Under the pieces are notes generated by a model. The model was not told the origin of the DNA. It ran no database searches and saw nothing but the letters and a program-made list of their open reading frames with translations. A program made the position numbers and the translations under genes. 64,000 nt of DNA from assembly GCA_963848295.1 (NCBI GenBank), contig CAWKDB010000010.1, positions 2,880,001 through 2,944,000 on the forward strand, in the 5' to 3' direction. The stretch is from an uncultured delta proteobacterium (GTDB taxonomy: Bacteria > Myxococcota_A > Polyangia > Haliangiales > Haliangiaceae). Below, piece after piece: positions 1,183 through 59,629 of the stretch; position 1 is the stretch's first letter; every line of letters begins with the position of its first letter.

Positions 1183-1283
1183 GGGACGGTGTTCACTTTG
1201 ACAACCGCCGTGCTGGGCTGAGGCTTGTTGTCGCCCGCACTTAGCTAGTTAGCTAGCTAGGGACGGTGTTCACTTTGACAACC
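1183..1283 (+). repeat. Dispersed repeat doublet, subtype I (GGGACGGTGTTCACTTTGACAACC x2)
   Basis: Identical 24-mers at 1183-1206 and 1260-1283; 77-bp period = 65 plus a 12-nt TTAGCTAG/CTAG slippage duplication. Confidence 0.93.
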
Positions 1284-1360
1284 GGCGCGTGGCAGACGCT
1301 TGTCGCTTGGCTGGAACGCGCCACCGTACGACCGCCACCGTCACCCACGGTCGCGCAGCG

Positions 1361-1456
1361 CAAGTTGACAAAAGAGACAGCGTCCCCACCGAAGCGTCCC
1401 CACCGAAGCGCAAGTTGACAAAAGAGACAGCGTCCCCACCGAAGCGACAGCGTCCC
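1361..1456 (-). repeat. Dispersed repeat cluster, subtype II (CAAGTTGACAAAAGAGACAGCGTCCCC x2 plus partial copies)
   Basis: Identical 27-mers at 1361-1387 and 1411-1437; partial copies near 1393 and at 1446-1456; ACCGAAGCG linkers. Confidence 0.93.
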
Positions 1457-3357
1457 TAATTCAGATCTGCTCGGCGGGTTCGCCATTCGTTGAAGAGCGC
1501 GGGGAAGCGCGGATCGCGTTGCAGCGGCGCTAGGTCGGCGTCGGTCTCCATCTTTTCGGTGTGCTCGTATTCGTGCTCGATCGCGCGCGAGACTTGTTCG
1601 AGCGCCTTGTCGATCTGGCCAAGCGCCGCGTAGGCGCAAGCGGCCGAGTGATAGATGTACGGATTTTCGGGCCCGAAGCGCTGGCCGCCGGAGGCGAGAT
1701 CGGCGGCGAGCTTGTAGTCACCGATCGCGTGCGCGTGAATACATGCGTTGTTCCACGCCATGACGAGCGCGGTGCGCGCTTCACCGGCGTCTTTCGCCGG
1801 CTCGGGCAACGCGATCACGCGGCGCAAGATCTGCAGCGCTTGCGGGCGATCGATGCCGAAGCTCGAGTTGTAGAGATGTGGCACGAGCAGGACCTCGTTC
1901 GGTAGCTTGTCGAGGATCGCAGCGAGGTGCTGGGGAGCATGGCGCGCGACTTGGCTCGCGAGATCGGCGAGCTCTTCCATCGTCGTATCGCCGACCACGG
2001 CATCGTCGAGTAGCGAGAGCGCCGGGCCGACCTCGTCGGGCGCGTGCTCGGCGGCCTCGCCGATCACGAGCAACCGCACCGACGGCTTCGACGTGCGCGC
2101 GAGCGCGATCGCCTCTTCGACCCGCTCTTGGCGAATCAGCACGATCGCGAGGTAGCCGGCAGCATCACACGCCGGATCGAACGCACTCGCCCGGCGCAGC
2201 AACCGTTCGGCGATCGCCGCGGCGCTCGGATCGTCCGGATCGTGCTCGAGCGCGACCTCGACGAGCATGCCGGCGAGCTCGCGCTTGCTCCAGGCGCTCT
2301 GGCCGACCGCCCACGCGAGCGCCGGTTCTTCGCCTTGGCGACGAAACCGATCGGCGAACGGGTTGCCGGCGAGCACGAACGGGGCCTCGCCATCGCCGGA
2401 CGCATGTGACTTCGTGGCGTCGTCGACGGTATCGAATCGCGCCCACGCGATCGGAATGACGTCCGACAGGCGCGCGATAATCCACAGCAGGAAATGCACC
2501 TGGTCGGCTGACGTCGCTGGCACCGCGAAGCGCTCGACCCACATCAGCGACGAGCGATGGCGACGATCGTGGATCGCATCGGCCCGGGAGAACGGCTCGA
2601 ACTCGTCGGCGCGCTCGTCTTGATAGACCGAGAGCCACAGCGCGAAGAACGCGTTGACCACGGACTCTTCGCCGAGCAACGGTTCGCCAGACAGCTTCAG
2701 CGCGACGCCGAAGCTCTCCCAGTCGTAGTCATCGATGATCTCGGGATAGCGCTCGATCGGAAACGTCACGGTGTGCTCGAACGGCGGGGTGCCATTGCGC
2801 CAATGGCTCTCGAGCGCGACCGCTTCGACGATGTCGTCGTCTTCGTCGTCCTCGTCGTCTTCGTCGGCATCATCTTCGGTCGCCTCGGCGACCGTCGGCA
2901 CTTCGGGATCCGCGGCGTCGGGATCCTCGTACAGCACCATCTCTTCCCAGCCGGTGCCCGGGCCGGGTGCGTCGGCGGGGGCGATCGCGCGCGCTTGCGC
3001 GGCCGCGGCTTCGGCCGCTTCACCGGCGGTGAGCTCGAGCCACGCGACGCCGTCGATACCGGTCTCGACCTTGACGAGCCACACCCCGTCGAGCTCGAGC
3101 TCGGCGGCGGCTTGCTCGAGTGCCGCGCGTTGTTCGCCGAGCTCTCCCGCGGTCGGCGGCAACCACGGCGCGGCGTGCCACTGGCGCGGGGGCTCCGAGC
3201 CCGGATCGTCGACCTCGCTCGGCTCGGTCACGCTGGCGCTGGCGAGCAGCTGCCACAGCTGGCGTTGTTGCGCGGCGTCGAGCGGCCGCTTGCTGCGCGC
3301 GATCACGATGCCTCGCGCCAAGTCGCTGCGTCGCGGCTCGAGGCCGACGATCTCCAT
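1456..3357 (-). CDS. Hypothetical protein with an acidic tract and C-terminal TPR repeats
   Basis: 633-aa ORF; DDADEDDEDDEDDD tract; C-terminal YIYHSAACAYAALGQIDKALEQVSRAIE...DADLAPLQRDPRF TPR-end motif. Confidence 0.75.
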   Translation of the reverse strand: MEIVGLEPRRSDLARGIVIARSKRPLDAAQQRQLWQLLASASVTEPSEVDDPGSEPPRQWHAAPWLPPTAGELGEQRAALEQAAAELELDGVWLVKVETGIDGVAWLELTAGEAAEAAAAQARAIAPADAPGPGTGWEEMVLYEDPDAADPEVPTVAEATEDDADEDDEDDEDDDIVEAVALESHWRNGTPPFEHTVTFPIERYPEIIDDYDWESFGVALKLSGEPLLGEESVVNAFFALWLSVYQDERADEFEPFSRADAIHDRRHRSSLMWVERFAVPATSADQVHFLLWIIARLSDVIPIAWARFDTVDDATKSHASGDGEAPFVLAGNPFADRFRRQGEEPALAWAVGQSAWSKRELAGMLVEVALEHDPDDPSAAAIAERLLRRASAFDPACDAAGYLAIVLIRQERVEEAIALARTSKPSVRLLVIGEAAEHAPDEVGPALSLLDDAVVGDTTMEELADLASQVARHAPQHLAAILDKLPNEVLLVPHLYNSSFGIDRPQALQILRRVIALPEPAKDAGEARTALVMAWNNACIHAHAIGDYKLAADLASGGQRFGPENPYIYHSAACAYAALGQIDKALEQVSRAIEHEYEHTEKMETDADLAPLQRDPRFPALFNEWRTRRADLN

Positions 3358-3397
3358 GCGTGCTACGAGCGTATCGCAAGCCGCGCGGGCCGGCAGC

Positions 3398-4804
3398 TCA
3401 GCACTCGATGATGTTGACCGCGAGCCCTCCGCGCGCGGTCTCCTTGTACTTGCTGCTCATGTCCGCGCCGGTCCGCCACATCGTCTTGATCACCTTGTCG
3501 AGCGACACCTTGTGCGTGCCGTCGCCTTGCAGCGCGAGCCGCGCCGCGTTGATCGCCTTGACCGCGCCCATCGCGTTGCGCTCGATGCAGGGTACCTGGA
3601 CGAGTCCGCCGATCGGATCGCAGGTCAACCCGAGGTTGTGCTCCATGCCGATCTCCGCGGCATTTTCGACCTGCGCCGGCGTGCCCCCCATCACCTCGGC
3701 GAGCGCGCCCGCCGCCATCGAGCATGCGACCCCGACCTCGCCCTGACAGCCGACCTCCGCGCCGCTGATCGACGCGTTCTTCTTGTACAACGCGCCGATC
3801 GCGCCGGCGGTGAGCAAGAACCGCAGCGTGCCTTCGTCGTCGGCGTTCGGCACGAACCGCCGGTAGTACGTGATCACGGCCGGGATGATGCCGGCGGCGC
3901 CGTTCGTGGGCGCGGTCACGACCCGGCCGCCCGCCGCGTTCTCTTCGTTGACCGCGAGCGCGAATAGATTCACCCAGTCCATGATCGTCAGCGGGTCGGC
4001 GGTGCCGTGATCGCTCTTGAGCTTGCGATAGAGCTGCGCGGCGCGACGCTTGACCTTCAGTCCGCCCGGCAAGATCCCTTCGCGTTCGCAACCGCGCTTC
4101 ACGCACGCATCCATCGCAGACCACAGGGCGAGCAGGCGGTGCCGGACCACAGCCTCGGGCCCGAGTCGAAGCGAGTCGGGCTCGCCGCGAGTCGGGACGA
4201 CCGCCTTCTCGTTCTCGAGCATCAACGTCGAGATCGCCATGCCGTGCTCGGTCGAATGACGGAGCAGCTCCTCGGCGGAGTTGAACGGATACGGCACCGA
4301 CAGCTGATCGGCGGGCACCGAGCCATCCGCCGGCGCCCCCGCGTGATCGACGACGAAACCGCCACCCACCGAATAGTAGATCCGCTCGACGATGATGCCA
4401 GCCACGCCGAATGCGGTGAACCGCATGCCGTTCGAGTGCAGCGGCAGCTTCTCGCGGCGATGAAACAGCAGCGCCTCCGGAACGAGCGTGACCTCGTGGC
4501 GGCCGAGTAGCTTCAACCGCCGGCTGGACTCGACCGCGGCGATGCGACGCTCGACCGCATCGATGTCCACGGTCGCCGGCTCGTCGCCCTCGAGGCCCAA
4601 GATGATCGCGCGATCGCTGCCGTGACCCTTGCCGGTGAAGCCGAGGCTGCCGAACAGCTCGACCTTCACGCTGGTCACCGCTTCGAGCTGCCCATCGGCG
4701 ACAAGCCGCTCGGCAAACCGCTTCGCGGCGCGCATCGGCCCGACCGTGTGCGAGCTCGATGGCCCGATGCCGATCTTGAAGATGTCGAAGACGGAGATGT
4801 GCAC
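3398..4804 (-). CDS. sdaA: L-serine ammonia-lyase (Fe-S, single chain)
   Basis: [70 protein letters not shown]. Confidence 0.96.
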
Positions 4805-4833
4805 GAACAGCGCCTCGATCGAGTGTAGCTCGT

Positions 4834-5760
4834 TTAGCGCGTGCGGCCGCGACGGGCGGCGGCGCGACGAGCCGCGCGAGCCGCGCGAGACCTGGCGACA
4901 CGCGCCTCGCGGTCGGCGCGGTCCTGCGCGCTACGGAGCTCGCGAGCGGTGGTGTCCTTCGCGCGATGGATCTCACGATCGGCGAGCTGCTTCGCGCGCT
5001 TGGCCTCGCGCGCCTTCTGCTCCTTCACACGCCTGGTCTCGCGCGCCGACGTGGCATCGAGCCCCAGCCGGACGGTCAGGCCATCGAGCATGGCTTGCAG
5101 ACCGAGCTCGAAGCGGTTGTTCGTGGCGAACGTCTCGCTGATCTCGAAGAACACCTCGGCAGGCTGACGCGACCCGATGAGCTCCGCGAGCTGCGGGTAC
5201 TCGCCCGTCGCGACCTGCGACTTCGCGAGGTCGTTCACGGCGCGCGCCTGGTCGAACGACGAGTGGTCCTCGACCGACCGCTGCACCGAGCCGAACACGT
5301 AGTCATCGACGAGCGTCAGCAACTGGATTTTGTCCGGCATCGACAGCGGCAGCTCGGCGACCGCGGACAGCGAATGTTCGATGTGGCGCAGTCCGTTCGG
5401 CCCGACGCGCGCACGGTCGAGCGATGCGATCGCCCAGGGGTGTGCGGTGAACGTGGCGTGCGTCGCGCGTGCGATGGTCTCGACGCCGGCGCGCCAACCG
5501 CGGGGCAGCGGCGTCGAGTGGCTGATGGCCTCGCCCATCAGCGCTTCATCGATGATCGTGAGCAGATCGTCCTTGGTACGGACGTAGTAGTAGAGCGTCA
5601 TCGTTCCCGCGCCGAGCTCGTCGGCGATCCGTCGCATCGACACCGCCTCGAACCCTTCGTGATCTGCGATCGCGACAGCTACTCGCGCGATCTGCTCGCG
5701 CGTGAACCGCGGCTTGCGAGACCCCGGCGGCGGCTCGGCCCAGATCGGGACGTTTGACAC
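4834..5760 (-). CDS. TetR/AcrR-family regulator (TetR_C type) with Arg/Ala-rich C-terminal tail
   Basis: GTG at 5760; [57 protein letters not shown]. Confidence 0.88.
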
Positions 5761-5762
5761 GC

Positions 5763-5812
5763 CGTACAGTGTACTGCTAATGCTATTCGTATGACGTACG
5801 ATGATGACGTAC
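5763..5812. promoter_or_regulatory. Probable TetR operator sites in the divergent promoter region
   Basis: Near-palindromes CGTACAGTGTACT (5763-5775) and CGTATGACGTACG (5788-5800), plus ATGACGTAC repeated at 5804-5812, between divergent tetR and ABC genes. Confidence 0.6.
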
Positions 5813-6825
5813 AAACCACGAACAAGGGCGTTCGCGCCGAGAACCTCGGCAAGCGGTTCGGCGAGCTGTGGGCGCTGCGCGGGCTCGACCTCGACGTGCG
5901 CCCCGGCAAGGTGCTCGGCTTGCTCGGCCACAACGGCGCCGGCAAGACGACCGCGATCCGGATCCTCACGACGCTGACGACGCCGACCGAAGGCCGCGCG
6001 ATCGTCGCCGGTCACGACGTCATGATCGAGGCGTCGCACGTGCGCGAACGCATCGGGGTCGCCGGTCAGGCCGCGACGGTCGACGGCCTGCTCACCGCGC
6101 GAGCGAACCTCGAGATGGTCGCGCGGCTCTATCACCTGTCGCGCGCGCGCGCCCGCGAGCGGGCGGGCGAACTGCTCGAGCGGTTCGAGCTCGCCGCCGA
6201 CGGGGACCGCCTCGTCAAGACGTACTCGGGCGGCATGCGGCGCCGGCTCGATCTCGCCGCGAGCCTCGTCGCCGCGCCCCCCGTGTTGTTCCTCGACGAG
6301 CCAACGACCGGCCTCGATCCCCGCAGCCGTAGCGAGCTGTGGCAGCTCCTCACCGAGCGTGTGCGCGGCGGTACGACGCTCGTGCTCACGACGCAATACC
6401 TCGAAGAAGCCGATCGCCTCGCCGACGAGATCGTCGTGCTCGACCACGGCACCGTCGCCGCACGCGGGACGCCGATGCAGTTGAAGACGACGATCGGTGG
6501 GGACCGAGTGACCGTCGCCGTCGCCGCGGCCGACGATGCGCCTCGCGCTCGCGTCGCTCTGTTGCCGTTCGCCGAGGGCGAGCCGGTGATCGAAGCGGCT
6601 CCGGACGCCCACGCCAACGCCCAAGGCATCGCGATCGGCACGACCGCACCTAGCCGGGTCGTGCTGCGCGGCAAGCCGGGGTTGCGGCTGGTCGAGGTCG
6701 TGCGCGCTCTCGACGCCGCCGGGATCGACGCGATCGATGTCGCCCGCCGCGAGACGACGCTCGATGACGTGTTCCTCGCGATCACCGATCGCAGCCGCAA
6801 GCCCGCCTCGGAGGTCGTGGCGTGA
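5791..6825 (+). CDS. DrrA-like ABC exporter ATP-binding protein
   Basis: Walker A GHNGAGKTT, signature YSGGMRRRLDLA, Walker B LFLDEPTTGLDP, TTQYLEEAD, C-terminal TLDDVFLAIT. Confidence 0.92.
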   Translation: MTYDDDVQTTNKGVRAENLGKRFGELWALRGLDLDVRPGKVLGLLGHNGAGKTTAIRILTTLTTPTEGRAIVAGHDVMIEASHVRERIGVAGQAATVDGLLTARANLEMVARLYHLSRARARERAGELLERFELAADGDRLVKTYSGGMRRRLDLAASLVAAPPVLFLDEPTTGLDPRSRSELWQLLTERVRGGTTLVLTTQYLEEADRLADEIVVLDHGTVAARGTPMQLKTTIGGDRVTVAVAAADDAPRARVALLPFAEGEPVIEAAPDAHANAQGIAIGTTAPSRVVLRGKPGLRLVEVVRALDAAGIDAIDVARRETTLDDVFLAITDRSRKPASEVVA

Positions 6826-7619
6826 GCGCCCGCTATCTGATCGTTGACAGCCTCGTGCTCGCGCGCCGCCACATCGCGCACATCCGGCAAATTCCCGAGA
6901 AGCTGCTCGACGTCACGCTCCAGCCGCTGATGTTCGTCTTGATGTTCGCGTACGTGTTCGGCGGCGTGATCTCGATCCCCGATGGCAGCTATCGCGAATA
7001 CCTGATCGGCGGCGTGATCGTGCAGTCGCTCGGCTTCGGCATCATGGGCCCGGCGACCGCGATCGCGACCGACGTGCGCGAAGGCGTGGTCGATCGGTTT
7101 CGCTCGCTGCCTATCTCGCGCGCGTCGTACCTGATCGGGCACTTGATCGCCGAGGTCGGCGCGACGCTCGTCGGGATCACCGTGCTGTCTCTCGCCGGCC
7201 TCGTCGTCGGCTGGGGCATCTATTCGAGCGTGCCCGCAGCGGTCGCCGCCTACGGGTTGATCATTTTGTTCGCGTTCTCGATGGTGTGGATGGGCACGTG
7301 GCTCGGGTTGAGCGTCCGGTCGCCGGACAGCGCGCAAGGCGTGGTGTTTCTCGTCGTGTTTCCGATGACGTTCCTGGCAAGCACGTTCGTCCCGCTCGAC
7401 GGCCTGACGCCGGTGTTGCGCACGATCGCGTCGTGGAATCCGGTGAGCGTGCTCGCCGCGGCGATCCGCGAGCTGTTCGGCAACCCGACCGCACTCCCGG
7501 GACATGCCGCCTGGCCGTTGCGCCACGCGGTCGTGTCGTCGCTGTTGTGCTGTGCGCTGATCGTCGCGGTATCCGCGCCGATGGCGATCCGCGCGTTCCG
7601 CAAGCGAACGAGCGACTAA
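6822..7619 (+). CDS. DrrB-like ABC-2 type permease
   Basis: GTGA overlap with the ATPase gene; LQPLMFVLMFAYVFGG, GVVDRFRSLPISR; multiple hydrophobic helices. Confidence 0.9.
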   Translation: MSARYLIVDSLVLARRHIAHIRQIPEKLLDVTLQPLMFVLMFAYVFGGVISIPDGSYREYLIGGVIVQSLGFGIMGPATAIATDVREGVVDRFRSLPISRASYLIGHLIAEVGATLVGITVLSLAGLVVGWGIYSSVPAAVAAYGLIILFAFSMVWMGTWLGLSVRSPDSAQGVVFLVVFPMTFLASTFVPLDGLTPVLRTIASWNPVSVLAAAIRELFGNPTALPGHAAWPLRHAVVSSLLCCALIVAVSAPMAIRAFRKRTSD

Positions 7620-8239
7620 CGCGGATCTGTCGGCGGTGGCGGGAGCGCCGCGGGTGCGGGCTGAGTCTGCGTGTCGGACGCGACGTACTTGTTGTAGATC
7701 TGATCGAACACGCGCCAGCGCTCCGACGACGGATCGTCGGGCAGCTCGCCGAACGCGAAGCCGATGATGCGATCGTCGAGGTTCGATAGCACGCGGACGC
7801 CGTTGCGATAGCGCGCGACGTGCAGGCCATCGAGATCGAACGTGACCGCGGGCAGACCGTACGGCGTGAACGCGTTCGCGGTCGGATCGCCGAGGCTGAT
7901 CGGCAGCGAGATCCTGTGCGCGTAATACGTGCCGCCCATCCAACCGAACGCGCGGATCGGCCCGCCACCACCCGAGTTGTCGACCAAGAACACGACCGAC
8001 GTGCCATCGGGAAACGTCTGCCCGTGACATGGCCGGCCGGCGTAGACCATCGCGCGCAGCGTATGCTCGCTGTCGAGCGGATCGTCGTCGCACGGATGAG
8101 TGTACGGCGCGCGGGTGCCGACCTTCGAGCCGAACTCGTCGCCGAGCTCGAACCCGTCGAGAGTAGGCAGCGGCTCCGGCTTCGGCGTCGAACCGTGCAG
8201 GCACGCGGCGACCGCGACGAGCAGCACGGCCGCGCGCAT
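7616..8239 (-). CDS. Hypothetical lipoprotein
   Basis: ATG overlapping the serA stop (TGATG); MRAAVLLVAVAAC lipobox-like signal. Confidence 0.65.
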   Translation of the reverse strand: MRAAVLLVAVAACLHGSTPKPEPLPTLDGFELGDEFGSKVGTRAPYTHPCDDDPLDSEHTLRAMVYAGRPCHGQTFPDGTSVVFLVDNSGGGGPIRAFGWMGGTYYAHRISLPISLGDPTANAFTPYGLPAVTFDLDGLHVARYRNGVRVLSNLDDRIIGFAFGELPDDPSSERWRVFDQIYNKYVASDTQTQPAPAALPPPPTDPR

Positions 8240-9465
8240 CAAAACAAGATCCGGGTCTTGATGCTCGTCTCGAGCGAGGCGACGGCGACCTTGACGTCGT
8301 TCGACACGTCGTGGTCGAGATCCATGATCAAGTAACCGATGTCGGCATCGGTCGACAGCAGCTGCGCGCGAATGTTCGCGTGGAGGTCGGACACGATCTT
8401 GTTGACGTCGCGCAAGACGCCCGGGACGTTGCGGTGAATGTTGAGGATGCGGTGGACGCCCGGCATGATCGGGAGCTCGACCTGGGGGAAGTTGACCGAG
8501 CCGGTCGTCGTGCCCTGGTTGATGAACTTGAGCAGCGCGGCCGAGACCTCGCGGCCGATCGCCTCTTGCGCCTCCTCGGTCGAGCCGCCGATATGCGGCG
8601 TGAGGATCACGTTCGGCAAGTTGCGCAGCGGCGATGCGAAGCCTTCGCTGTTGGTCGCGGGCTCGGTCGGATAGACATCGACCGCCGCGCCGCCGATGTG
8701 GCCACGCTTGATCGCGTCGGCGAGTGCTTCGATCACGACGACCGTGCCGCGGCTCGCGTTGAGCAAGCATGCGCCCGGCTTCATCTGCGCGAGCTCGGCG
8801 GCGTCGATCATGTTCTTCGTCGACGGCGTCTCGGGAACGTGCAGCGTCACGAAGTCGGCCTCGGCGAGCAGGTCGGCGAGCTTCGCCATCGAACGGTTGT
8901 TACCCATCGGCAACCGCGCGGCGATGTCGAAGAACATGACCCGCATGCCGAACGATTCGGCGAGCACGCCGATCTGGCTGCCGATGTGACCGTAGCCGAC
9001 GATGCCGATCGTCTTGCCGCGCACTTCGTGGCTACCGACCGCGAGTTTCTTCCACTGGCCCTCGTGAACCTCGCGCGAGCGATCGCCGAGGTGGCGAGAC
9101 AGCATGACGATCTCGGCGAGGATCATCTCGGCGACCGAGCGCGTGTTCGAGAACGGGGCGTTGAACACCGGCACGCCGCGGCGATTCGCGTGGAGCAGCG
9201 CGACCTGGTTCGTGCCGATGCAGAACGCTCCGACCGCGAGCAAGCGGCGGGCCTCGTCGAGCACGCGCGGAGTGATCTGCGTCTTGCTGCGAATCCCGAC
9301 GATGTGGGCATCGCGAACCCGCGCCGCGAGCTGGTCTTCCGGCAGCGCGCCCGACACGGTCTCGACATGAAACCCATCCGCCTTGAACGCCTCGGCGGCC
9401 ACCGGATGGATGTTCTCGAGCAAGACGATCTTGATCTCGGATTTCGGAAACGACGTCGCGGCCAT
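8239..9465 (-). CDS. serA: D-3-phosphoglycerate dehydrogenase
   Basis: GAFCIGTNQV, GIVGYGHIGSQ, NASRGTVV, ILTPHIGGSTEEAQ, C-terminal ACT domain (HRNVPGVL). Confidence 0.96.
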   Translation of the reverse strand: MAATSFPKSEIKIVLLENIHPVAAEAFKADGFHVETVSGALPEDQLAARVRDAHIVGIRSKTQITPRVLDEARRLLAVGAFCIGTNQVALLHANRRGVPVFNAPFSNTRSVAEMILAEIVMLSRHLGDRSREVHEGQWKKLAVGSHEVRGKTIGIVGYGHIGSQIGVLAESFGMRVMFFDIAARLPMGNNRSMAKLADLLAEADFVTLHVPETPSTKNMIDAAELAQMKPGACLLNASRGTVVVIEALADAIKRGHIGGAAVDVYPTEPATNSEGFASPLRNLPNVILTPHIGGSTEEAQEAIGREVSAALLKFINQGTTTGSVNFPQVELPIMPGVHRILNIHRNVPGVLRDVNKIVSDLHANIRAQLLSTDADIGYLIMDLDHDVSNDVKVAVASLETSIKTRILF

Positions 9466-9496
9466 GCGCCGCAGACTCTATCAGGTATCGTTCGCC

Positions 9497-10096: not shown

Positions 10097-10122
10097 ACGC
10101 GGCTTCGGCTACAGTCCGCGCC

Positions 10123-11118: not shown

Positions 11119-11120
11119 CG

Positions 11121-11612: not shown

Positions 11613-11666
11613 GACGGCGATGCTCGCGCTCCCACCGATTCGGCGCAACTGCGGTAAGGTCGCGAC

Positions 11667-28990: not shown

Positions 28991-29709
28991 AGTTATATCC
29001 GGCGATCGACGTGCTCGGCGGCCGAGCGGTTCGGCTAGAACAAGGCAGCCGCGAACGTGCGACCGTGTTCCACGAGGATCCGGTCGCGCTCGTCGCCGAG
29101 CTCGCCGCCGGCGGAGCGGATCGGTTGCATGTCGTCGATCTCGATGGCGCGTTCGGTGACCCGCGTCAGCACGTGTTGATCGCGCGCATCGTCGAGGCCG
29201 CACCGATCGAGGTCGAGGTCGGCGGTGGCATTCGCGATCGCGCTGCGCTCGATGCCGTGCTGGTCACCGGGGCGAAGCTCGCGGTGCTCGGCACCGCGGC
29301 GGTGCGCTCGCCGCTGTTCGTGGAGGCAGCGTGCCGCGCGTACCCCGGCCGGGTCATCGTCGCGGTCGACGCGAGGGACGGCATCGTCGCCGTCGATGGC
29401 TGGACCGCGAGCGGCGGCGTCTCGGCGATCGAGCTCGGCCGCCGTGCAGACGCCTGGGGTGCTGCGGCGTTGCTCTACACCGACGTCGCGCGCGACGGCC
29501 TGAGCCGCGGCCCGAACGTGGCCGCGACCGCCGAGCTCGCACGCGCGGTCGGCTGCGAAGTGATCGCATCGGGTGGGGTGGGCTCGCTCGCGGATCTCGT
29601 GGCGCTGCGCGACGCGGGAATCGTCGCCGCGGTCGTCGGCCGTGCGCTGTACGATCGCGCGTTCACCGTCGGCGAAGCCGTCCGCGTCGCCCATGGAGGC
29701 GCGGCGTGA
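28987..29709 (+). CDS. hisA: ProFAR isomerase
   Basis: [48 protein letters not shown]. Confidence 0.95.
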
Positions 29710-29841
29710 CGCTCGCCCGTCGCATCATCCCGTGCTTCGACGTCAACGATCGAACGTTCGCCGCCAGCGAAGCCCCGCGCGTCGCCCACGAAGGCGCGGC
29801 ATGACGCTCGCCCGTCGCATCATCCCGTGCCTCGACGTCAA
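29652..29841 (+). repeat. Diverged 95-bp tandem duplication of the hisA 3' end / hisF 5' end
   Basis: Units 29652-29746 and 29747-29841 share TGACGCTCGCCCGTCGCATCATCCCGTGC and a related upstream half. Confidence 0.9.
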
Positions 29842-30787: not shown

Positions 30788-30877
30788 GGTTGACAAAGTG
30801 AACACCGTCCCCAGCTAAAGCGCTGGGATCGTTCCGTTCTTGATCGGGCGAGGGTTGACAGAGTGAACACCGTCCCC
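30788..30877 (-). repeat. Dispersed repeat doublet, subtype I
   Basis: GGTTGACA(A/G)AGTGAACACCGTCCCC at 30788-30812 and 30853-30877; 65-bp period. Confidence 0.93.
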
Positions 30878-40979: not shown

Positions 40980-42752
<1,773 letters not shown>

Positions 42753-42841
42753 GGGACGGTGTTCACCTTGTCAACTTGCGCTCCGGCGGAGGCTGAATAA
42801 TCTCAGCGCCTTAGTTGGGGACGGTGTTCACTTTGTCAACC
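42753..42841 (+). repeat. Dispersed repeat doublet, subtype I
   Basis: GGGACGGTGTTCAC(C/T)TTGTCAAC at 42753 and 42818; 65-bp period. Confidence 0.93.
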
Positions 42842-42881
42842 AGCCGGCCAAGTGCCAGAGCTAGTCGCTGTAGGCTGACTC

Positions 42882-45743
42882 ATGTCCCTGTGGTCGCGGC
42901 TCGAGCGCAGGCTCGGCGATCTCGCCGGCGAGCTCGTGCTCGACGACTATCGCGACCAGCTCAACCAAGCGCGCGGGCTGATCGCGAAGGGCGACGTCAG
43001 GACCGCGATCGACGTGCTCGAAGCGCTGCTCGCGGTCAAGCCCGACCACGGCCAGGCGCTGATCGTGCTCGGTGAGGCCCGGCTCGCCCAGCGCGAGCCC
43101 GCCGCCGCACGCGACGCATTCGAGCGTGCACTCGCGATCCGCGGCGGTGACCCCGCAGCGCTCGTCGGCCTCGGGCTCGCGCTGATCGAGCTCGCGAGCT
43201 TCGAAGTCGCGATCAGCACTCTCGGCCGCGCGGTCGGCGAAGCAGCGGGTGATCGGTCGATCCTCGCGGAGGCCTATCGCGGCTTGGGCGTCGCCTGGCG
43301 CCGCCGCGGCGATCTCGACAAGGCGATTCGCGAGCTGCGCAAGGCAGTCACCGAAGATGGCGACGACCTCGATGCGCGCGCCGCACTCGGCGAAGCGCTC
43401 GTCGCCGATGGTGGCCCCTACGACGAAGCGCTGCGTCACCTCGAGCGCGCCGCGAAAGGCGATCGAGCACTCGCGCTCTACGGTCTCGGCCGGCTCGCGC
43501 TGATCGAAGGCGCACCCGCGACTGCCGCCGACCGGCTCGCGAATGCGCGCGCGTTTGCGGATGCTGACCCGACACCGCTCGGCGCGCTCGTGCGCTCGGA
43601 GATCTCGCTCGCGCAGGGCGACGCGGCCCTCGCCGACGGCGACGCGATCCACGCGCATGCGTTCTATCTCGAGGCGCTGCAAGCCGATCCTCGACGCGCC
43701 GAGGTTCACGCACGAATCGCGCGAGCGCATCGAGTGGTCGGTAGCCTCGACGCCGCGCTCACGAGCTACGATCGCGCCCTAGCCCTCGGCGGTGACGTCG
43801 CGGTGTTGCGCGATGCGGTCGACACGGCGCTCGCCGCCGGCGATGCCACGCGCGAGCTCGCATGGGGCAACGATCTGCTCGGCAAAGACCCCGAGGACTT
43901 GCGCGCGATCGTGGCGCGCGGAGCGGCGATGGCTCGCGAGCAGCCGAGCGCGGCGCGGGCGTTGCTCGAGCTAGCCTCCGCTCGCGACGACGTCGATGCG
44001 CATGTCGAGCTCGCCAAGCTCGCGCTCGCGCCCGGACCCGCTCACGATCCGAGGCTAGCCGCCGAGCACGCGAAAGCCGCGCTCCGAGTCGCACCCCACG
44101 ATCAGCGCGCGCGGCGCGTGCTCACCGACGCGCGGGCCGCCGAGCTGCCGCCGCCGTCGGGCTCGGACATCGCCGAGCTCGCGCAGTTTCTCGAGCGCGC
44201 CGTCGCCACCCGGCGCGAGCTCGGTCACTTCGTCGGCGAGGTCGCGCGTGCCGCGGCGAATCTCGATCAACCTTTGCTCGTGACCGTGATGGGCGAGTTC
44301 TCGAGCGGCAAGTCGTCGTTCGTCAATGCGTTCATCGGCGCGGACGTAGCGCCGACGGGAATCACCCCGACGACCGCGACGATCAACGTCGTGCGCTACG
44401 GCCACGAGCGCGGCGGCCGCATCCTCGGCGCCAGCGGTGGCACTGCGGTCGAGCTCGGCTGGGACGCCTTGATGGCGCACCTTCGCGCGCTGACACCGGA
44501 GGCCGCGCGCGCGATCGATCGGGTCGAGATCCTCGTGCCGCTGGCCCAGCTCGAGAAGATAAACATCGTCGATACGCCGGGCCTCAACTCGATCCTGCCC
44601 GAGCACCAAGCGACCGCTCGCGCGTTCATCGCACGCGCCGATGCAGTCGTGTGGGTGTTCACCGCGTCGCAAGGCGGCAAGGCGAGCGAGCAGAAAGCCC
44701 TGCGCTCCATCCGCGACGAGGGCAAGCGCGTGCTCGGCGTGCTGAACAAGGCCGACCAACTGTCCGACAGCGAGCGCGCGGAGGTCGTCGAGTTCATCAC
44801 GGCGACCCTGGGCGAGCTCGTCGAGGTCGTCGTTCCATTCTCGGCGCGCAAGGCGCTCGCGAGCAAGCGCGGAGAACCCGGCGCGACCGACGACGGCAAC
44901 TGGAGCGCGCTCCAGTCGGCGCTCGAAGAGCGCTTCTTCACGCAGGCCCGTCAGCTCAAGCGCGATGCGTGTGCGCGCGTGTTGCGCGGGGTCGTCAGCC
45001 AGGCGCGAACGGTGCTCGATGCCGATCGCACGCGAACCTCCGCCGCGAGCGATGCCGCGCGCGCCGGGCGCGATGAGCTCCTCGCCTCGGCGCGCAAGCT
45101 CGACCTCGAGCTCGTGCTCGGGGAACGTAAAGCGCTGTCGGACCATGCGAGCACCCTTTACCGCCGCGCCGCGCGCGAAGTGATCGACCTCGTGCGACCG
45201 CGTCGCCTGCCGTTCTCGTCACATACTGCCACCGCCGCCGATCGCGATTACGTGATCGCGTTGCTCGCGTCGGGTTACGAGTCGGCAATCGAAGCGGCGC
45301 GTGCGCGGGTCGCGAAAGAGCTCGCAGCTCGGGCTCGCGTGCTGCAGCCTGCGGCCCGCGCGATCGCGCAGGCGTCGGGGCGTGACGTTGTCGGCGACCT
45401 CCAGCGCGTCGCCGCGGACCAGATCGGCCTGGCGCTGTCTCGCGTGTTCGATCGCGCGCGGGCCTACGTGCGCGGCTACCTCGAGGGCGGTTACGTCGAG
45501 GCGTTCTTTCGCAATGACGTGCCGCGGCTCGAGCTCGCCGAAGATGCGGTCTATCACGCGCTCGTCCGCGGGGCCCCCGATCTCGATCGCGAGCTTTCCG
45601 AGCCACTGATCCGCGCCGCGACCGACGCGCTCACCGCGATCGCCGAACGGCTCGATCATTGGGGCGCGGTGATCGACGTTCAGGCTTTTGATCTCGACGC
45701 GGGGATAGGTCGAGCTCTCGAGATCGTCAGCTCTCGGTTATGA
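42882..45743 (+). CDS. TPR-repeat / dynamin-like GTPase fusion
   Basis: ~420 aa of TPR-like repeats, then GEFSSGKS, PTT, DTPG, NKAD. Confidence 0.9.
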   Translation: MSLWSRLERRLGDLAGELVLDDYRDQLNQARGLIAKGDVRTAIDVLEALLAVKPDHGQALIVLGEARLAQREPAAARDAFERALAIRGGDPAALVGLGLALIELASFEVAISTLGRAVGEAAGDRSILAEAYRGLGVAWRRRGDLDKAIRELRKAVTEDGDDLDARAALGEALVADGGPYDEALRHLERAAKGDRALALYGLGRLALIEGAPATAADRLANARAFADADPTPLGALVRSEISLAQGDAALADGDAIHAHAFYLEALQADPRRAEVHARIARAHRVVGSLDAALTSYDRALALGGDVAVLRDAVDTALAAGDATRELAWGNDLLGKDPEDLRAIVARGAAMAREQPSAARALLELASARDDVDAHVELAKLALAPGPAHDPRLAAEHAKAALRVAPHDQRARRVLTDARAAELPPPSGSDIAELAQFLERAVATRRELGHFVGEVARAAANLDQPLLVTVMGEFSSGKSSFVNAFIGADVAPTGITPTTATINVVRYGHERGGRILGASGGTAVELGWDALMAHLRALTPEAARAIDRVEILVPLAQLEKINIVDTPGLNSILPEHQATARAFIARADAVVWVFTASQGGKASEQKALRSIRDEGKRVLGVLNKADQLSDSERAEVVEFITATLGELVEVVVPFSARKALASKRGEPGATDDGNWSALQSALEERFFTQARQLKRDACARVLRGVVSQARTVLDADRTRTSAASDAARAGRDELLASARKLDLELVLGERKALSDHASTLYRRAAREVIDLVRPRRLPFSSHTATAADRDYVIALLASGYESAIEAARARVAKELAARARVLQPAARAIAQASGRDVVGDLQRVAADQIGLALSRVFDRARAYVRGYLEGGYVEAFFRNDVPRLELAEDAVYHALVRGAPDLDRELSEPLIRAATDALTAIAERLDHWGAVIDVQAFDLDAGIGRALEIVSSRL

Positions 45744-46532: not shown

Positions 46533-46631
46533 AAGTTGACAAAAGAGACAGCGTCCCCAAGAAAGCGGCTCGAAATCATCGGGTTAGACGCCGGGCTCTC
46601 CCGCGCAAGTTGACAAAAGAGACAGCGTCCC
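46533..46631 (-). repeat. Dispersed repeat doublet, subtype II
   Basis: AAGTTGACAAAAGAGACAGCGTCCC at 46533 and 46607; 74-bp period. Confidence 0.93.
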
Positions 46632-48995: not shown

Positions 48996-49053
48996 GCGTC
49001 GTTGTTAGCACGCGTGAATCCTCGGGGCGGGAGCACGCCCAGGCCGCTTGGAA

Positions 49054-49152
49054 GGTGACGCTGTCTCTATTGTCAACTTGCGGGTCAGCGGGCTCGCGGT
49101 AACCCGGGGCAATCACGCGGGTTCGCTGGGGACGGTGTCTCTTTTGTCAACT
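49054..49152 (+). repeat. Dispersed repeat doublet, subtype II, overlapping the rsmA 3' end
   Basis: GACG(C/G)TGTCTCT(A/T)TTGTCAACT at 49057 and 49131; 74-bp period. Confidence 0.92.
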
Positions 49153-50021: not shown

Positions 50022-50102
50022 CGGGGCACCTGGCGACGGAACACTCGAGCCAACATCCATGGCCCCCGAGTTGACCAAAGAACCTTCGGTCCCAGAGGAC
50101 CC

Positions 50103-50202
50103 CAAGTTGACAAAAGAGACAGCGTCCCCAGCGAAGCCGCGTGATTGCGCCGAGTTAGCGGGAGCCCCGCCGGGCGCAAGTTGACAATAGAGACAGCGTC
50201 CC
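50103..50202 (-). repeat. Dispersed repeat doublet, subtype II (degenerate third copy at ~50069-50093)
   Basis: CAAGTTGACAA(A/T)AGAGACAGCGTCCC at 50103 and 50177; 74-bp period. Confidence 0.93.
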
Positions 50203-51222: not shown

Positions 51223-51228
51223 GCCCGG

Positions 51229-53751: not shown

Positions 53752-53827
53752 GATCCCCGGGCGGGCAAATCGTATCGCGCTAACCAAACCGTCGCCAGCA
53801 ACGCGGCCGCCGGCGTACGCTAGATCG

Positions 53828-54970
53828 GTGAGGCTCGAGCTTCCGTACGGCCGAGCGCCCTACCCGGTCGACCTCGTGGCACCGGACCTCGAGATCGTGG
53901 GTGCGGCGCCACTGCCACCGGCCTCCGAGTCGATCGATCATGCAATCGCCCGTGCACTCGAGGCCCCGATCGGCTGCGGCTCGTTGCGTTCGCTGGTAGC
54001 ACGCCGCGGACGCGTGACGGTGATCGTGAGCGACACGACTCGCGACGAGCCGCGAGCTGCGATGCTGTCCGCGATCCGCGGCGAGTTACCCGACGCGCAG
54101 CTCACGATTGCGGTCGCCACCGGAACCCATGGGCCAGCCGCGATCGGGCCGCTCGGGATCGATGCGTTTCTCGCAGGGGCGCGCGTCGTCAACCACGACG
54201 GCCACCGCGACGAGGATCTGGTCCTGCTCGGGACCACGGAGCGCGGCACCCCCGTGCGACTTCATCGTTGCGTCATCGAGACCGACCTGGTCATCGCCAC
54301 CGGCTGCATCCGACCGCATTACTTCGCCGGATTCGCCGCGGGCGGCAAAGCGATCTTCCCGGGTCTCGGCGCCGCGAGCGATATCCGACGCAACCATCAG
54401 CTGAAGATCCAGCCGGGCGCACGAGCTGGGGACATCGATGCGAATCCGTGTCGAGCAGATCTCGACGAGGCAGTGAGCTTCGTCGAAACGCCCACGTTCT
54501 TGCTCGACGTTGTTGCAGCTCCGGATGGGCCTCGAGCGGCAGTCGCCGGGGAGCTCGGGGCCGCGTTTCGTGCAGGCGTCGAGCTCTGTCGGCCTTGGTT
54601 CACGGTGCGAGCACGTCGAGCGCCGCTGGTCATCGCCTCCGATGCGCTGCCGGTGGCTGCGACCCTCTATCAAGCCGCCAAGATTTTTGCCGCGGCGCTA
54701 CCGTTGGTCGAAGAAGGCGGCAAGCTGATCGTCGTGGCTGAGTGTTGTGACGGAATCGGACCACTTGATGTGGTGAACGAAGCGATCTTTCGGATCGGCG
54801 TCTTGCCGCGCGTCCCGGCCGGCGCAGCGATCGCGTTGGTCAGCGGTCTGGCGGCCGACGTCATCGCGCGTACCCTCGTAGAGTTTGCACCGAACGTATC
54901 TGTCGGAGGTGCCGCGAGGGTCGTGGTGGTTCCGCGTGCGAGTCAGCTGATCTGTGAACCGACGTCATGA
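53828..54970 (+). CDS. LarA (lactate racemase)-superfamily protein
   Basis: VSDTTR, ATGTH, NHDG, GTTERGTPV, PHYFAGFAAGGKAIFPG, NH, TLYQAAK. Confidence 0.82.
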   Translation: MRLELPYGRAPYPVDLVAPDLEIVGAAPLPPASESIDHAIARALEAPIGCGSLRSLVARRGRVTVIVSDTTRDEPRAAMLSAIRGELPDAQLTIAVATGTHGPAAIGPLGIDAFLAGARVVNHDGHRDEDLVLLGTTERGTPVRLHRCVIETDLVIATGCIRPHYFAGFAAGGKAIFPGLGAASDIRRNHQLKIQPGARAGDIDANPCRADLDEAVSFVETPTFLLDVVAAPDGPRAAVAGELGAAFRAGVELCRPWFTVRARRAPLVIASDALPVAATLYQAAKIFAAALPLVEEGGKLIVVAECCDGIGPLDVVNEAIFRIGVLPRVPAGAAIALVSGLAADVIARTLVEFAPNVSVGGAARVVVVPRASQLICEPTS

Positions 54971-55530
54971 TCGAGTCGGCCCTCACCCGCCTCGGTATTG
55001 ACCGTGAATATGTAAGTAAAATCAGTGATTTCATCGATACACTCGAGCGATGGAATCGCAGTATCAACCTGACCGCTGCGAAGTCTCGCGCTGACATCAT
55101 CGATCACGTTGTGGACTGCCTGAGCGTCGTCCCGCATCTCGCCAGCCGAATGCGCGTTCTCGATGTCGGTTCCGGTGGTGGATTGCCAGCCGTGATCGCG
55201 GCGATCTGTTTGCCCGGGTCGACCATCACCGCTCTCGAACCCACTCACAAGAAGCACGCTTTCCTTCGCGCGTGTGCGCGTGAGCTGAACCTGCCGAATC
55301 TGATACCGCTGGCCGAACGCCTGGCCGATCACCGCGTCGCCGACTACGACGCCGCGACTTCGCGCGCGACGTTTGATCTGGCCGACTGGCTCGCGCTCGG
55401 CAGAAGCCGCGTGCGTGCCGGCGGCATCGTGATCGGGTTCGAGGCGACACCGCGTTCGGATCTCCCGACTGGCACGACTCGTCATCCGTATGCCCACGGC
55501 GATCGCACGCGCGCGCTCGTGATCCTGTAG
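54967..55530 (+). CDS. rsmG: 16S rRNA m7G527 methyltransferase
   Basis: WNRSINLTA, HVVDCL, LDVGSGGGLP, KKHAFL, TSRA. Confidence 0.9.
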   Translation: MIESALTRLGIDREYVSKISDFIDTLERWNRSINLTAAKSRADIIDHVVDCLSVVPHLASRMRVLDVGSGGGLPAVIAAICLPGSTITALEPTHKKHAFLRACARELNLPNLIPLAERLADHRVADYDAATSRATFDLADWLALGRSRVRAGGIVIGFEATPRSDLPTGTTRHPYAHGDRTRALVIL

Positions 55531-55584
55531 GCGCCAGTCCTCATGGTTATCTCGAGCGCGCACGCGCGTTACCGGGCAGCTCCG

Positions 55585-55600
55585 CGTTCCACGTGGAACA
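55585..55600. promoter_or_regulatory. parS centromere site
   Basis: CGTTCCACGTGGAACA fits the universal parS palindrome; origin-proximal gene context. Confidence 0.85.
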
Positions 55601-55753
55601 CATCGAGCACCGCGCATGCTCTGCGCTCGACCCGCCGAGCGGACAACCAATCGCATCGAACGTCACACGTCCACCGTTCGATCGCAGCCCGGTCCATCGA
55701 ACCCGGAACCTCGGTCGTTCACGACACCTGGCTCCACCCATGGGCGGCGGCAG

Positions 55754-56315
55754 CGTCCATCCACGCGCTTTGCGCCAGCCGCTCCGACCCACGGGGGGCG
55801 ACGCGATCGTCCATCCACGCGCTTTGCGCCAGCCGCTCCGACGGGGGGCGACGCGATCGTCCATCCACGCGCTTTGCGCCAGCCGCTCCGACGGGGGGCG
55901 ACGCGATCGTCCATCCACGCGCTTTGCGCCAGCCGCTCCGACGGGGGGCGACGCGATCGTTCACTCACGCGCTTTGCGCCAGCCGGTCCGACCCACGGGG
56001 TCGACGCGATCGTTCACCCACGCGCTTTGCGCCAGCCGCTCCGACCCACGGGGGGGCGGCGCGATCCACCCGCGCGCTTTGCGCCAGCACGCGCCGACCC
56101 ACGGGGGTCGGCGCGATCCATCCGCGCGCTTGCGCCAGCACGCTCTGACCAACGAGGCAGCGAGATCGTCTACCTACGCGCTTCGCGCACGCACGGCTCC
56201 GACCGGGGTCGGCGGGATCCATGCGGTTCACGGCGCCTGCCCGGACCCACGGAGGGCTCGTCGGGATCCGCCCGCTTCACGACCCCGCGCGACTCACGGG
56301 GCACCACCCGCCAGA
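55754..56315 (+). repeat. Tandem array of about ten 49-55-bp units with polar degeneration
   Basis: Three identical 50-mers at 55808, 55858 and 55908; variants at 55754, 55958, 56011, 56066, 56118, 56167 and 56219. Confidence 0.93.
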
Positions 56316-56342
56316 GGGCGCAATCGGGCTCTGCACCACGGT

Positions 56343-56358
56343 CGTTTCACGTGGAACG
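56343..56358. promoter_or_regulatory. parS centromere site overlapping the bioD stop codon
   Basis: CGTTTCACGTGGAACG. Confidence 0.82.
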
Positions 56359-56997
56359 TATCGCAGCGAGCACCGTATCCAACGCCGAGGGTTCGTCGCG
56401 GTAGATAGCGACCGTTCCGGACCATGCCGCTCGGATTTGGTCGGCGTTGCTCCGCGCAAATACGTCGTCCTCGCCGGCTCGGCGAGACAGCACGAGCGCC
56501 GAGACCGTGAGCCCATCCCGCTCGATCGCCTCGACGGTGAGCAAGCTGTGATTGATCGTTCCGAGCCCTGCTCGAGCCACGACCACGACCGGAAGAGCCA
56601 AGGCACGAGCAAGTCCCGACATATCAAGAACCCGCGTGATCGGAACCCGCCAGCCACCTGCACCCTCCACCAGGCTAAGATCAGCCTGGCAGGCGCCCGA
56701 GGCGGCGAGATGCAGTACACGTTCGGGGCTGATCTCGGCCCCTTCCGCGGTGGCCGAGACGAGCGGAGCCGCGGCCAGCTCGAACGAGTACGCACCCGCC
56801 AGCTCCCCACGTTGCCAGCCACCAGCTGCTTGTGTGAGCGCCTGCTGGTCTTCTCCAAGCTCGCCGTGGCATCCGGTCTCGATCGGCTTGAACGCGAACA
56901 CGCGCTGCCCAAGCTCGCGCGCTCGCCGCGCCAATGCACTCGTGACGAACGTCTTGCCGACGCCGGTATCGGTTCCGGTAACGAAGGCGCCGATCAT
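56347..56997 (-). CDS. bioD: Dethiobiotin synthetase
   Basis: FVTGTDTGVGKT, FKPIETG, VEGAGGW, LGTINHSLLT. Confidence 0.95.
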   Translation of the reverse strand: MIGAFVTGTDTGVGKTFVTSALARRARELGQRVFAFKPIETGCHGELGEDQQALTQAAGGWQRGELAGAYSFELAAAPLVSATAEGAEISPERVLHLAASGACQADLSLVEGAGGWRVPITRVLDMSGLARALALPVVVVARAGLGTINHSLLTVEAIERDGLTVSALVLSRRAGEDDVFARSNADQIRAAWSGTVAIYRDEPSALDTVLAAIRST

Positions 56998-58257
56998 GTG
57001 GAGATCGCGGCCGCCGTCGCGCGTTCGAGCAACTGGAGCTCGTCACTCGAAATCGATAGCGGCGGCATCCAGACGACGACGTCGCCCAGGTTGCGCAAGA
57101 GCACTCCGTGCGTGCGGACCCGTTCGCAAACCTCGACGCCCCGCGACCGGCCCTCGACCGGGTCGAGCTCGATCCCGGCCATCATTCCGCATTGGCGAAC
57201 CGACGCGACGCCAGCCATGCCGCCGATTCGGCTTAACGCCGCGGTGAGCTCGGGAGCGCGCGCCGATGCGTTGGCAAGCGTGGATTCGCGGAGCACGGCG
57301 AGTGACTCGAGTCCGACCGCACATGCGAGTGGGTTCGCGGTGAAGGTGTGGCCGTGAAAAAACTGCTTGAGCTCGTCACGTCGACCGAGAAACGCGCCGT
57401 AGACCTCCTCGGTCGCAAGTGTCGCGGCGAGCGGGAGGTAGCCCCCCGCGATTCCTTTGGCGAGGCACATAAAGTCGGGCGCAACACCCTCGGCTTCGCA
57501 CGCGAACAATGGCCCCGTGCGGCCAAACCCGGTCGCGACTTCGTCGACGATGAGGTGGACGCTGTATTGCTTGCACAACGCAGCCGCCGCACTCAGAAAG
57601 CCGGGCGGATGCACGAGCATTCCAGCGGCACCTTGAACCCGAGGTTCCACGATGAACGCTGCGATTCTCGTAGGCGCGGAGCTCGAGCTCATTCTCGAGC
57701 CGGCCGAGAGCGCGCATGCCGTCGGTACCCGCGGGGGTCGGAATCGCGATGCTGCGCACGAGCAGCGGACCGAAGATGCGGTGGAACAGGTCGATGCCGC
57801 CGACCCCGACTGCACCGAGGGTGTCGCCGTGGTACGCGTCGCCGAGACGAAGGAACCGCTGCTTGCTTGGCCGCCCGACCAGCTGCCAATACTGGAACGA
57901 TTGCTTCAGCGCGATCTCGACCGCGGTCGAGCCGGAGTCCGAGTAGAACACCCTCGTCAGGCAGGCCGGCGCCACTTCGACTAGCGCCGCTGCGAGCCGA
58001 ATCCCAGGCTCGTGGGTGAGTCCGAGGAACGTCGAGTGCGCGAGCTTGTGGGCCTGGATCTCAAGTGCGCGATTGAGCCGCGGATGGTTGTGGCCGTGAA
58101 CATTGCACCACAGCGACGCGACTCCGTCGAGGTAGCGATTGCCTTCCACATCGAATAAGAAGCTGCCATCGCCGCGGTCGATGACGAGTGGATCCCATTC
58201 GGCCATCTGCGTGAATGGATGCCAGACCGCGCGCTTATCTAGCTCGCAGAGGTCCAT
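56994..58257 (-). CDS. bioA: DAPA aminotransferase; one frameshift near 57667
   Basis: [28 protein letters not shown] in one frame; [39 protein letters not shown] in another; extra A in GAG-A-ATC. Confidence 0.92.
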
Positions 58258-58259
58258 GG

Positions 58260-59417
58260 CTAGGCTCGATGACGCATCGCGTCATCCAGCAGGGAGGCGC
58301 CGGCCTCGACGTGCTCGGCACTATGTCCGGCGGTGAGGCTCAGCCGCAATCGAGACGTCCGCTCGGGCACGGTCGGTGGTCGGATCGCTGGAACGAATGC
58401 CCCTCTCGCCAACAGGCGCCCGCTGAGCTCGAGCGCACTGCGATCGTCACCAACGGGGACCGGGACGATCGCACTATCGGCGGCGCCGCCGGCGCAGGGC
58501 GCAAGCTCGCGCAACCGACGAGCAGAGCGGGCCAACGTCGCCCGGCGCTGGTCACCCTCCGAGCTGCGCGCGATTTCGATCGCCGCGACCGTGGCCGCCT
58601 GGACGAGCGCCGGGGCAGCCGTGGAGAACACTAAGGGCCGAGCGCGATTCCACAGCAGCTCCGCGACCGCCGCGCTGGTCGCGACAAACGCGCCGAACGT
58701 GCCGAGCGCCTTGCCGAACGTGCCGACCAGGACATCGGGCACGACGCCGACCGACGCCGCGATGCCCCTTCCTTCGGGCCCGCGGGCGCCCATCGCGTGG
58801 GCTTCGTCGAGGATCAACGCGGCGTCGTAGCGCCGGCACAGCTCGGATAGCGCGACGACGTCAGCGAGATCTCCATCCATCGAGAACAGCGACTCGGATA
58901 CGACGACCCGGCGTCGACCCCGGCGCGACTCCAGGGCGCGCTCGAGCGCAGCGAGGTCGCGGTGCGGGAACACTTCGACCGCCGCGCGCGACAACCTGCA
59001 GCCGTCGACGATGCTCGCGTGGTTGAGCTCGTCGGAGAACACGACGTCACCCGCACCGAGCAGCGCGGTGAGCACGCCGAGGTTCGCCGCGTAACCGGTC
59101 GCGAAGACGCGTACGCCGCCGACGCGCAGCCAATCCACGACCGCGCGCTCGAGAGCAACGTGTGCTCGCTGGTTGCCGACCAGCAGTCGAGAGGCTCCCG
59201 CCCCAACGCCGACGCGGTCGAGATGGTCCGCCGCGGCGCGCGCGAGGCGAAGATCACCGGCGAGGCCTAGGTAGTCGTTAGAGCCAAAGTTGACGACGCT
59301 CTGTCCGTCGAGCTCGATCAATGCGCCTTGCCGGCCATCGACCACGCGCGCTGTGCGCAGTCGATTCGCAACTCCCAACCGCGCGAGCTCGGCGCGGGCG
59401 TCATCATCGAGGGACAT
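58260..59417 (-). CDS. bioF: 8-amino-7-oxononanoate synthase
   Basis: [52 protein letters not shown]. Confidence 0.95.
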
Positions 59418-59531
59418 CGGCGCGGACTATAGACGCTCGAGCTTGCCGATCAATCGGGATGAGACTCAGCCCGCCACGCCGACGCTATTGACCATGGAGA
59501 CAGCGCCGGCAGCTCCACGCCACGCGCGACC

Positions 59532-59629
59532 CAAGTTGACAATAGAGACAGCGTCCCCAGCGAACCCGCGCGATTACCGTGATTTGCGGCGCGCTACACG
59601 CAGCCCAAGTTGACAATAGAGACAGCGTC
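59532..59629 (-). repeat. Dispersed repeat doublet, subtype II (degenerate copy at ~59487)
   Basis: CAAGTTGACAATAGAGACAGCGTC at 59532 and 59606; 74-bp period. Confidence 0.93.

Follow-up and report, generated by a model that had tools for sequence, protein, structure and literature searches.

Terminal inverted repeats (TIRs) flanking TIRYT genes were described by Di Nocera et al. (2013, PMC3733652); in the sections of that report considered here, some TIRs share the motif GGGGWSAS and others do not, and some form dispersed families as dimers or clusters. Quentin et al. (2018, PMC6006769) tentatively equated TIRYT with subclass 2.1 of the TnpA-Y1 transposases, the second-largest subclass, found in 14.9% of strains. 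In the corresponding passages no sequence resembling a repetitive extragenic palindrome (REP) was found for this subclass, and recognition of the ends by the helix-turn-helix (HTH) was doubted. The accessible sections of both papers report neither a TIRYT substrate nor an assay. For the REP-associated tyrosine transposases (RAYTs), the consulted part of the REPORTH preprint (10.1101/2024.10.14.618302) suggests that they modify or replace REPINs (REP doublets forming hairpins) at conserved positions. Here we analysed a window of 64,000 nt (G000:C10:2880001-2944000) from the 7.78 Mb, 85% complete assembly of an uncultured delta proteobacterium, labelled G000. Its close homologues indicate Kofleriaceae, a family of myxobacteria. 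The window carries eight doublets of a ~25-bp direct repeat in two subtypes. These doublets are probably dispersed, gene-less copies of TIRYT terminal repeats, with one gene per subtype whose enzyme would spread and overwrite them.

Direct doublets and their cognate genes

Repeat copies were counted against the ~25-bp consensus at up to three mismatches. The window holds 16 copies, compared with none in 100 shuffles, and they form eight same-strand doublets with periods of 77, 65 and 65 bp (type I) and 50, 74, 74, 74 and 74 bp (type II), at positions agreeing within 1-3 nt with those of the preliminary description (Table 1). Slippage at 1183 and collapse at 1361 had been proposed there, and both were confirmed since the sister species G112 has periods of 65 and 74 at this site. 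Genome-wide, the 230 copies comprise 86 doublets, 5 triplets and 43 singles. The suggested scan and distance histogram gave peaks at 65 and 74 and mostly doublets rather than random spacing: among 96 intervals of up to 300 bp, 24 lie at 64-65 bp and 56 at 73-75 bp (80/96). The period of exactly 74 bp given for subtype II therefore holds for four window loci and widens to 73-75 bp in the genome. Some singles pair in inverted orientation, with at least nine such pairs (counted by eye) versus 91 direct groups. Between loci, repeats are 90-97% identical, spacers 38-41% and flanks 27-30%, in line with the earlier picture of a conserved period with a drifting spacer, and the ~90 groups scattered through the genome bear out a dispersed family of REP/MITE-like character. 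Independent short-read contigs across the 42753 and 49055 doublets showed no difference (the run is possibly the window's own sample), and no joints at repeats were present among the contig matches listed, which cannot reveal rare forms. No RNA data set was listed as carrying the sequence.

The enzymes were found elsewhere in the genome. The two best matches to NF047646, both below its cut-off (E about 1e-10), sit between inverted doublets, and either end of each gene carries a doublet of that gene's subtype, which the dispersed copies match. The two proteins are 52% identical to each other and the sole two of their kind in G000. The absence of a transposase, noted earlier, was thus correct for the window and not for the genome, where each subtype flanks its own intact HUH/Y1 gene; the advised check for a RAYT/HUH enzyme yielded these two cognate genes. 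H59-x-H61, Y117 within YIHNNP and S138 are invariant across 26 aligned homologues, the C-terminal end can be aligned to domain IV of DnaA (E=0.009), and at E<=0.05 Y1_Tnp was matched in 20 and Bac_DnaA_C in 10 of these 26. The predicted structure has a mean pLDDT (predicted local distance difference test) of 91 and a helical C-terminal domain. Judged by these motifs, the proteins are HUH/Y1 tyrosine transposases with a predicted DnaA-like C-terminal HTH. No repeat copy lies within 5 kb of the nine PF01797 genes of G000. The nine other Y1 genes (L001-L009), encoding ~250 aa, mostly share an upstream non-coding element unrelated to the doublets.

The two edges of the doublets differ. By the predictions of a rough custom gene caller, convergent gaps hold 41 of the 86 intergenic groups and make up 276 of the 2670 background gaps. 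The 5' edge falls between -4 and +7 nt from the stop codon in 49 of the 63 groups with a co-oriented upstream gene, and the 3' distances are spread, giving a ragged edge. Exact tandem duplications of at least 8 nt were found at the 5' edge in 9/230 copies, at the 3' edge in 1/230 and in 18/3060 intergenic controls. At a fixed position of the spacer, both subtypes have an AT step that precedes repeat 2 by 15-17 nt; in type I it is followed eleven nt downstream by TT, and in type II AA stands eleven nt upstream of it. Scored against a consensus for integration host factor (IHF), the spacers exceeded all 200 shuffles (6.38 versus 5.47 and 5.93 versus 5.54, of 9). In the genome, the gene for IHF alpha passes the cut-off and that for IHF beta (an ihfA/ihfB-like pair) just misses it. 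Intrinsic bendability accounts for the spacer signal equally well.

The repeat is non-palindromic and directly paired, as had been described, and several other element types were rejected. A structured RNA, one of the earlier suggestions, and a single-stranded DNA hairpin were rejected, since 24 doublets per type, on both strands and as RNA and DNA, folded no better than shuffles (mean z -0.71 to +0.46). The recommended Rfam scan of the window gave nothing at gathering scores. Features of REPs, bacterial interspersed mosaic elements (BIMEs) and REPINs were lacking, as the repeat logos contain no GT(A/G)G foot, folding gave no palindromic stem-loop and direct groups outnumber inverted pairs. 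A CGTC-tagged REP was dismissed: CGTC occurs on the reverse strand, but there is no stable hairpin, and a cognate enzyme exists. A MITE, a miniature transposable element with inverted repeats, would not have direct termini, and target-site duplication was not consistent by eye at 14 empty sites. Against a CRISPR mini-array stand the fixed motifs of the spacers, their gradual divergence between orthologues and the pairing with a Y1 gene, with no search for cas genes made. A composite transposon around rsmA was discarded because unrelated housekeeping genes lie between the inverted doublets there and G112 shares both sites.

Table 1. Doublets of the window (window positions) and the two TIRYT genes (genome positions)
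Feature	Position	Strand	Period (bp)	Details
Type I doublet	1183..1282	+	77	repeats 1183-1205 and 1260-1282; directly 3' of thymidine kinase stop; microduplication at 5' edge of repeat 2 gives the period; 65 at same site in G112
Type II doublet	1364..1436	-	50	collapsed, edge microduplications; 74 at same site in G112
Type I doublet	30789..30876	-	65	upstream of hisIE
Type I doublet	42753..42840	+	65	directly 3' of stop of dynamin-like gene; site occupied in G112
Type II doublet	46535..46631	-	74	first G completes stop of upstream open reading frame (ORF); convergent with RNase HII
Type II doublet	49055..49151	+	74	between rsmA and mutM; rsmA frame reads through repeat 2, stop in spacer
Type II doublet	50106..50202	-	74	directly 3' of tsaD stop
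Type II doublet	59535..59631	-	74	at stop of mnmE-like ORF
TIRYT gene	G000:C10:1101402-1102325	+		307 aa; type I ends
TIRYT gene	about C10:2679443-2680393	-		about 317 aa; type II ends

Other repeats were noticed as well. A third repeat variant (GGGACGGAGT...) occurs as singles and inverted pairs on C10 near 1010797, 1267382 and 4827376; its cognate gene was not found, and one of its sites carries type I repeats in G112. In the window, a tandem array of ~six units of 50-53 bp, unique in the genome, spans 55738-56090, and a 95-bp direct duplication (87% identical) at 29651-29840 overlaps the start of a his-region gene. At 40980-45743 two bacterial dynamin-like genes, the second with N-terminal tetratricopeptide repeats, are separated by a type I doublet, behind which G112 has extra DNA.

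Sites shared with a sister species and occurrence in relatives

The comparison with G112 covered 81 clusters, taken from the loci L112-L209, L029 and L030 of that genome. Sixty-six were syntenic (flanks 87-88% identical), of which 52 are occupied in both genomes and 14 are empty in G000, which answers the earlier proposal to look for empty orthologous sites. At these common sites the repeats have changed in concert. Position 12 of orthologous type II repeats is G in 55/56 copies of G112 and T in 45/56 copies of G000, and in each species this is the variant at its own TIRtron ends. Variants are shared within doublets above chance, both at type II position 12 (50/56 versus 41.1) and at type I position 19 (22/24 versus 13.9); of the positions tested, three of four in type II and the only one in type I were concordant. 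Since independent mutation is not a plausible source of such concerted change, some copying process must be at work.

The spacers behaved differently. Identity between orthologous spacers is 69% for type I (n=10) and 56% for type II (n=18), against 38% between non-orthologous ones and 74% at four-fold degenerate sites. Among 14 doublets with equal periods and both repeats changed, the orthologous spacer was the best match in seven, near the top in three and unrelated in four. The retained spacers therefore imply that overwriting can be confined to the repeats. The subtype had switched at 2 of 41 paired sites. At one pair of filled and empty orthologous sites (L126 and G000:C2:1339338) both carry a near-consensus IHF-like site at a type I-like distance from the repeat; this site might serve as a target signal or be a remnant.

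In its exact form the motif is nearly species-specific, with 191 matches in G000, 163 in G112 and at most nine in the other 89 genus genomes; the architecture is more widespread. We examined 32 TIRYT loci, namely 30 from a homologue search plus L211 and L030. All 32 have inverted ends; a direct doublet flanks one or both sides in 22 and both sides in 15. The doublet periods at homologous loci are 56-74 bp with a mode of 61, and therefore the reading of 74 bp as about seven helical turns is not general. A generic doublet pattern gave at least 10 matches in 15 of 91 genus genomes, or in 14 after G095 was dropped, whose matches are microsatellites; G098, G099, G104 and G106 were counted by pattern matches without inspection of these. 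A strong TIRYT match (E<1e-55) is present in 12 of the 14 doublet-rich genomes versus 21 of the 77 others, which include G010 (a hand count in which kin are not independent). In G067, G033 and G011 the dispersed copies are of the same family as the repeats that flank the TIRYT gene of the respective genome. Of 300 phylum genomes, 298 have fewer than 10 matches and two reach this number, one apparently by chance. The genome G011 gave ~200 matches to doublets or triplets; they fall into at least three families with periods of 54-59, and many of the triplets hold two near-identical spacers, suggesting unit duplication. The reversed control pattern gave 34 matches in G068 alone among the genus genomes, a hint of another repeat family.

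Proposed mechanism and competing explanations

If the doublets are TIRYT end copies, the C-terminal HTH would bind the 3' TTG(T/A)CAAC half of both repeats, and would read it as double-stranded DNA because there is no hairpin for RAYT-style recognition. IHF, or an intrinsic bend at the phased A/T signal ~16 nt before repeat 2, would join both bound enzymes, and the HUH domain would nick at the sharp 5' GGGGAC edge. Strand transfer to the 3'-OH of another site, with repair ending at variable 3' points, could then result in new insertions, subtype switches or conversion of old repeats, and selection would retain copies chiefly just behind stop codons. In a bolder form, which we put forward tentatively and with some doubt, TIRYT proteins would be hairpin-independent Y1 nickases whose relaxosome-like complex on the IHF-bent doublet copies the 25-bp repeat into old sites in trans; enzyme-driven gene conversion would keep hundreds of sites matched to the enzyme and mutagenise the DNA between.

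Several observations weigh against this interpretation. Binding, nicking and movement are steps inferred from sequence, and the domain matches of the proteins fall below curated cut-offs. Proteins and repeats covary weakly (rho 0.15-0.21), the enzyme occurs together with few doublets in 21 genomes, and 10 of 32 TIRtrons lack a doublet. A less strict test showed no excess of microduplications (16 versus 11 versus 9 of 230), which emerged only after post hoc refinement. Matches to the IHF consensus are degenerate, with mean best scores of 5.9-6.4 of 9, and the common spacer motif (18/24, 25/56) was defined from the same data. Moreover, no replication-strand bias was seen (43:30, p=0.16), type II position 2 shows no within-doublet concordance, and the 14 empty sites have no clean common junction. 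Finally, the four converted doublets with spacers no better than unrelated ones look wholly replaced.

The last point would be expected if, with the same TIRtron origin, the whole doublet were a mini-element that is excised and reinserted at favoured sites, so that homogeneity reflects turnover of elements and the spacers mutate during or after transfer. The two subtype switches and the 14 empty sites in G000 fit such turnover, and related spacers recur across loci, as a small excess of type II pairs (11 versus a null of 1.9 at P=74) and, closely related, at distant loci in the G011 families. However, in the seven doublets that changed both repeats and kept their spacer, the locus-specific spacer was still the best match among up to 26, and orthologous spacers are closer to each other than non-orthologous ones; we therefore regard element turnover as unlikely. 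Host gene conversion among about 230 short repeats, seeded by TIRYT and with no enzyme activity at each site, would likewise yield concordant repeats within a doublet. In addition, T has come nearer to fixation around oriC, the region richest in copies and of highest gene dosage (G in 2/65 within 300 kb versus 22/92 elsewhere). Yet 25 bp is short for RecA-type exchange, the variant that swept in each species is that of its TIRtron ends, and neither a one-sided sharp edge nor microduplications would be expected, which makes purely host-driven conversion improbable.

The position of the window raises a further explanation, in which selection by the host keeps the doublets as binding sites for organising the origin region and TIRYT is domesticated as a DnaA-like binding or nicking factor. 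The dnaA gene starts about 1 kb beyond the window, C10 has 45 of its 105 clusters within 300 kb of this gene (12.9 expected), and convergent gaps are occupied in 13/95 cases near and 20/636 far from it; both TIRYT genes and the 52 of 66 occupied sites are common to G112. The type II gene, however, is 265 kb from dnaA, so that proximity to the origin and to the gene are confounded. The origin peak was not reproduced in G011, on which this comparison rests as G078 and G114 are too fragmented for use: only 3 of 51 doublets of one of its families lie within 300 kb of dnaA, and the peak, with 17 doublets, surrounds its own TIRYT gene. Most genus genomes, and nearly all those of the phylum, have few or no doublets. 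We hold an origin-organising role to be the least credible of these accounts, and copies of TIRYT ends remain the favoured one.

Comparison with known systems

In the sections of PMC3733652 considered here, TIRtrons combine a HUH/Tyr gene with inverted G-rich ends unrelated to GTAG REPs, two genes and two repeat families can occur in one genome, and copies form dimers or clusters, all as found in G000. The repeat ends start with GGGGACG, and GGGGACGS agrees at 7/8 positions with GGGGWSAS, which according to these sections is present in a subset of TIRs. By these features the doublet system is a TIRtron/TIRYT; it belongs to a TIR family of a described type and is therefore no new class. The earlier suggestion of a new family was thus refuted in part, for the element type; the direct doublet and the change in place were absent from the texts used. 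Our literature search, with Additional files 4-5 and Figure 9 (TIR dimer counts) of PMC3733652 and subscription papers outside the comparison, found no prior non-folding direct doublet as a dispersed unit, and no account of an IHF-like signal at a fixed place in the spacer, of stop codons at the 5' edge or of a sweep limited to the repeats.

By its protein features, the TIRYT analysed here probably corresponds to subclass 2.1 of TnpA-Y1. Subclass 2.1.2, as presented in the relevant passages of PMC6006769, has the same Y---NP signature, serine motif and C-terminal Bac_DnaA_C/HTH and no hairpin REP. Unlike subclass 2.1 in those passages, G000 has a family of 230 repeat copies, and a loose likeness to the DnaA box cited there is seen in their 3' half (TTGTCAAC/TTGTCCAC). 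The system offers cognate pairs of enzyme and repeat, together with natural markers of a single base, a candidate for the host factor and a predicted edge for the nick. Two questions become accessible to direct experiment with it: which DNA the DnaA-like HTH targets, and whether repeats are overwritten in place by enzymes of the RAYT type, as suggested for REPINs.

The BIME-1/RIB elements of E. coli, reportedly found at the 3' ends of transcription units, pair two repeats around a linker that contains an IHF site, and their REPs are said to be inverted and palindromic with a conserved linker. They resemble our doublets in the repeat pair behind transcription units and the IHF-type linker site. 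They differ in that the repeats here are direct and non-palindromic, the linker drifts and the IHF-like signal is degenerate.

The RAYT-REPIN system, as far as covered by the passages used of Bertels et al. (2017, PMC5581495) and the REPORTH preprint, is alike in having one enzyme per family, vertical inheritance, and extragenic and convergent sites. According to the former, REPINs belong to Group 2/3 RAYTs as inverted pairs that form hairpins, and the 16-mers flanking Group 1 average about 12 copies. Unlike REPINs, the unit described here is direct and non-folding, and the single-base sweep with kept spacers separates rewriting of the repeat from replacement of the element. The doublets work like the RAYT-REPIN system and are not members of the REPs.

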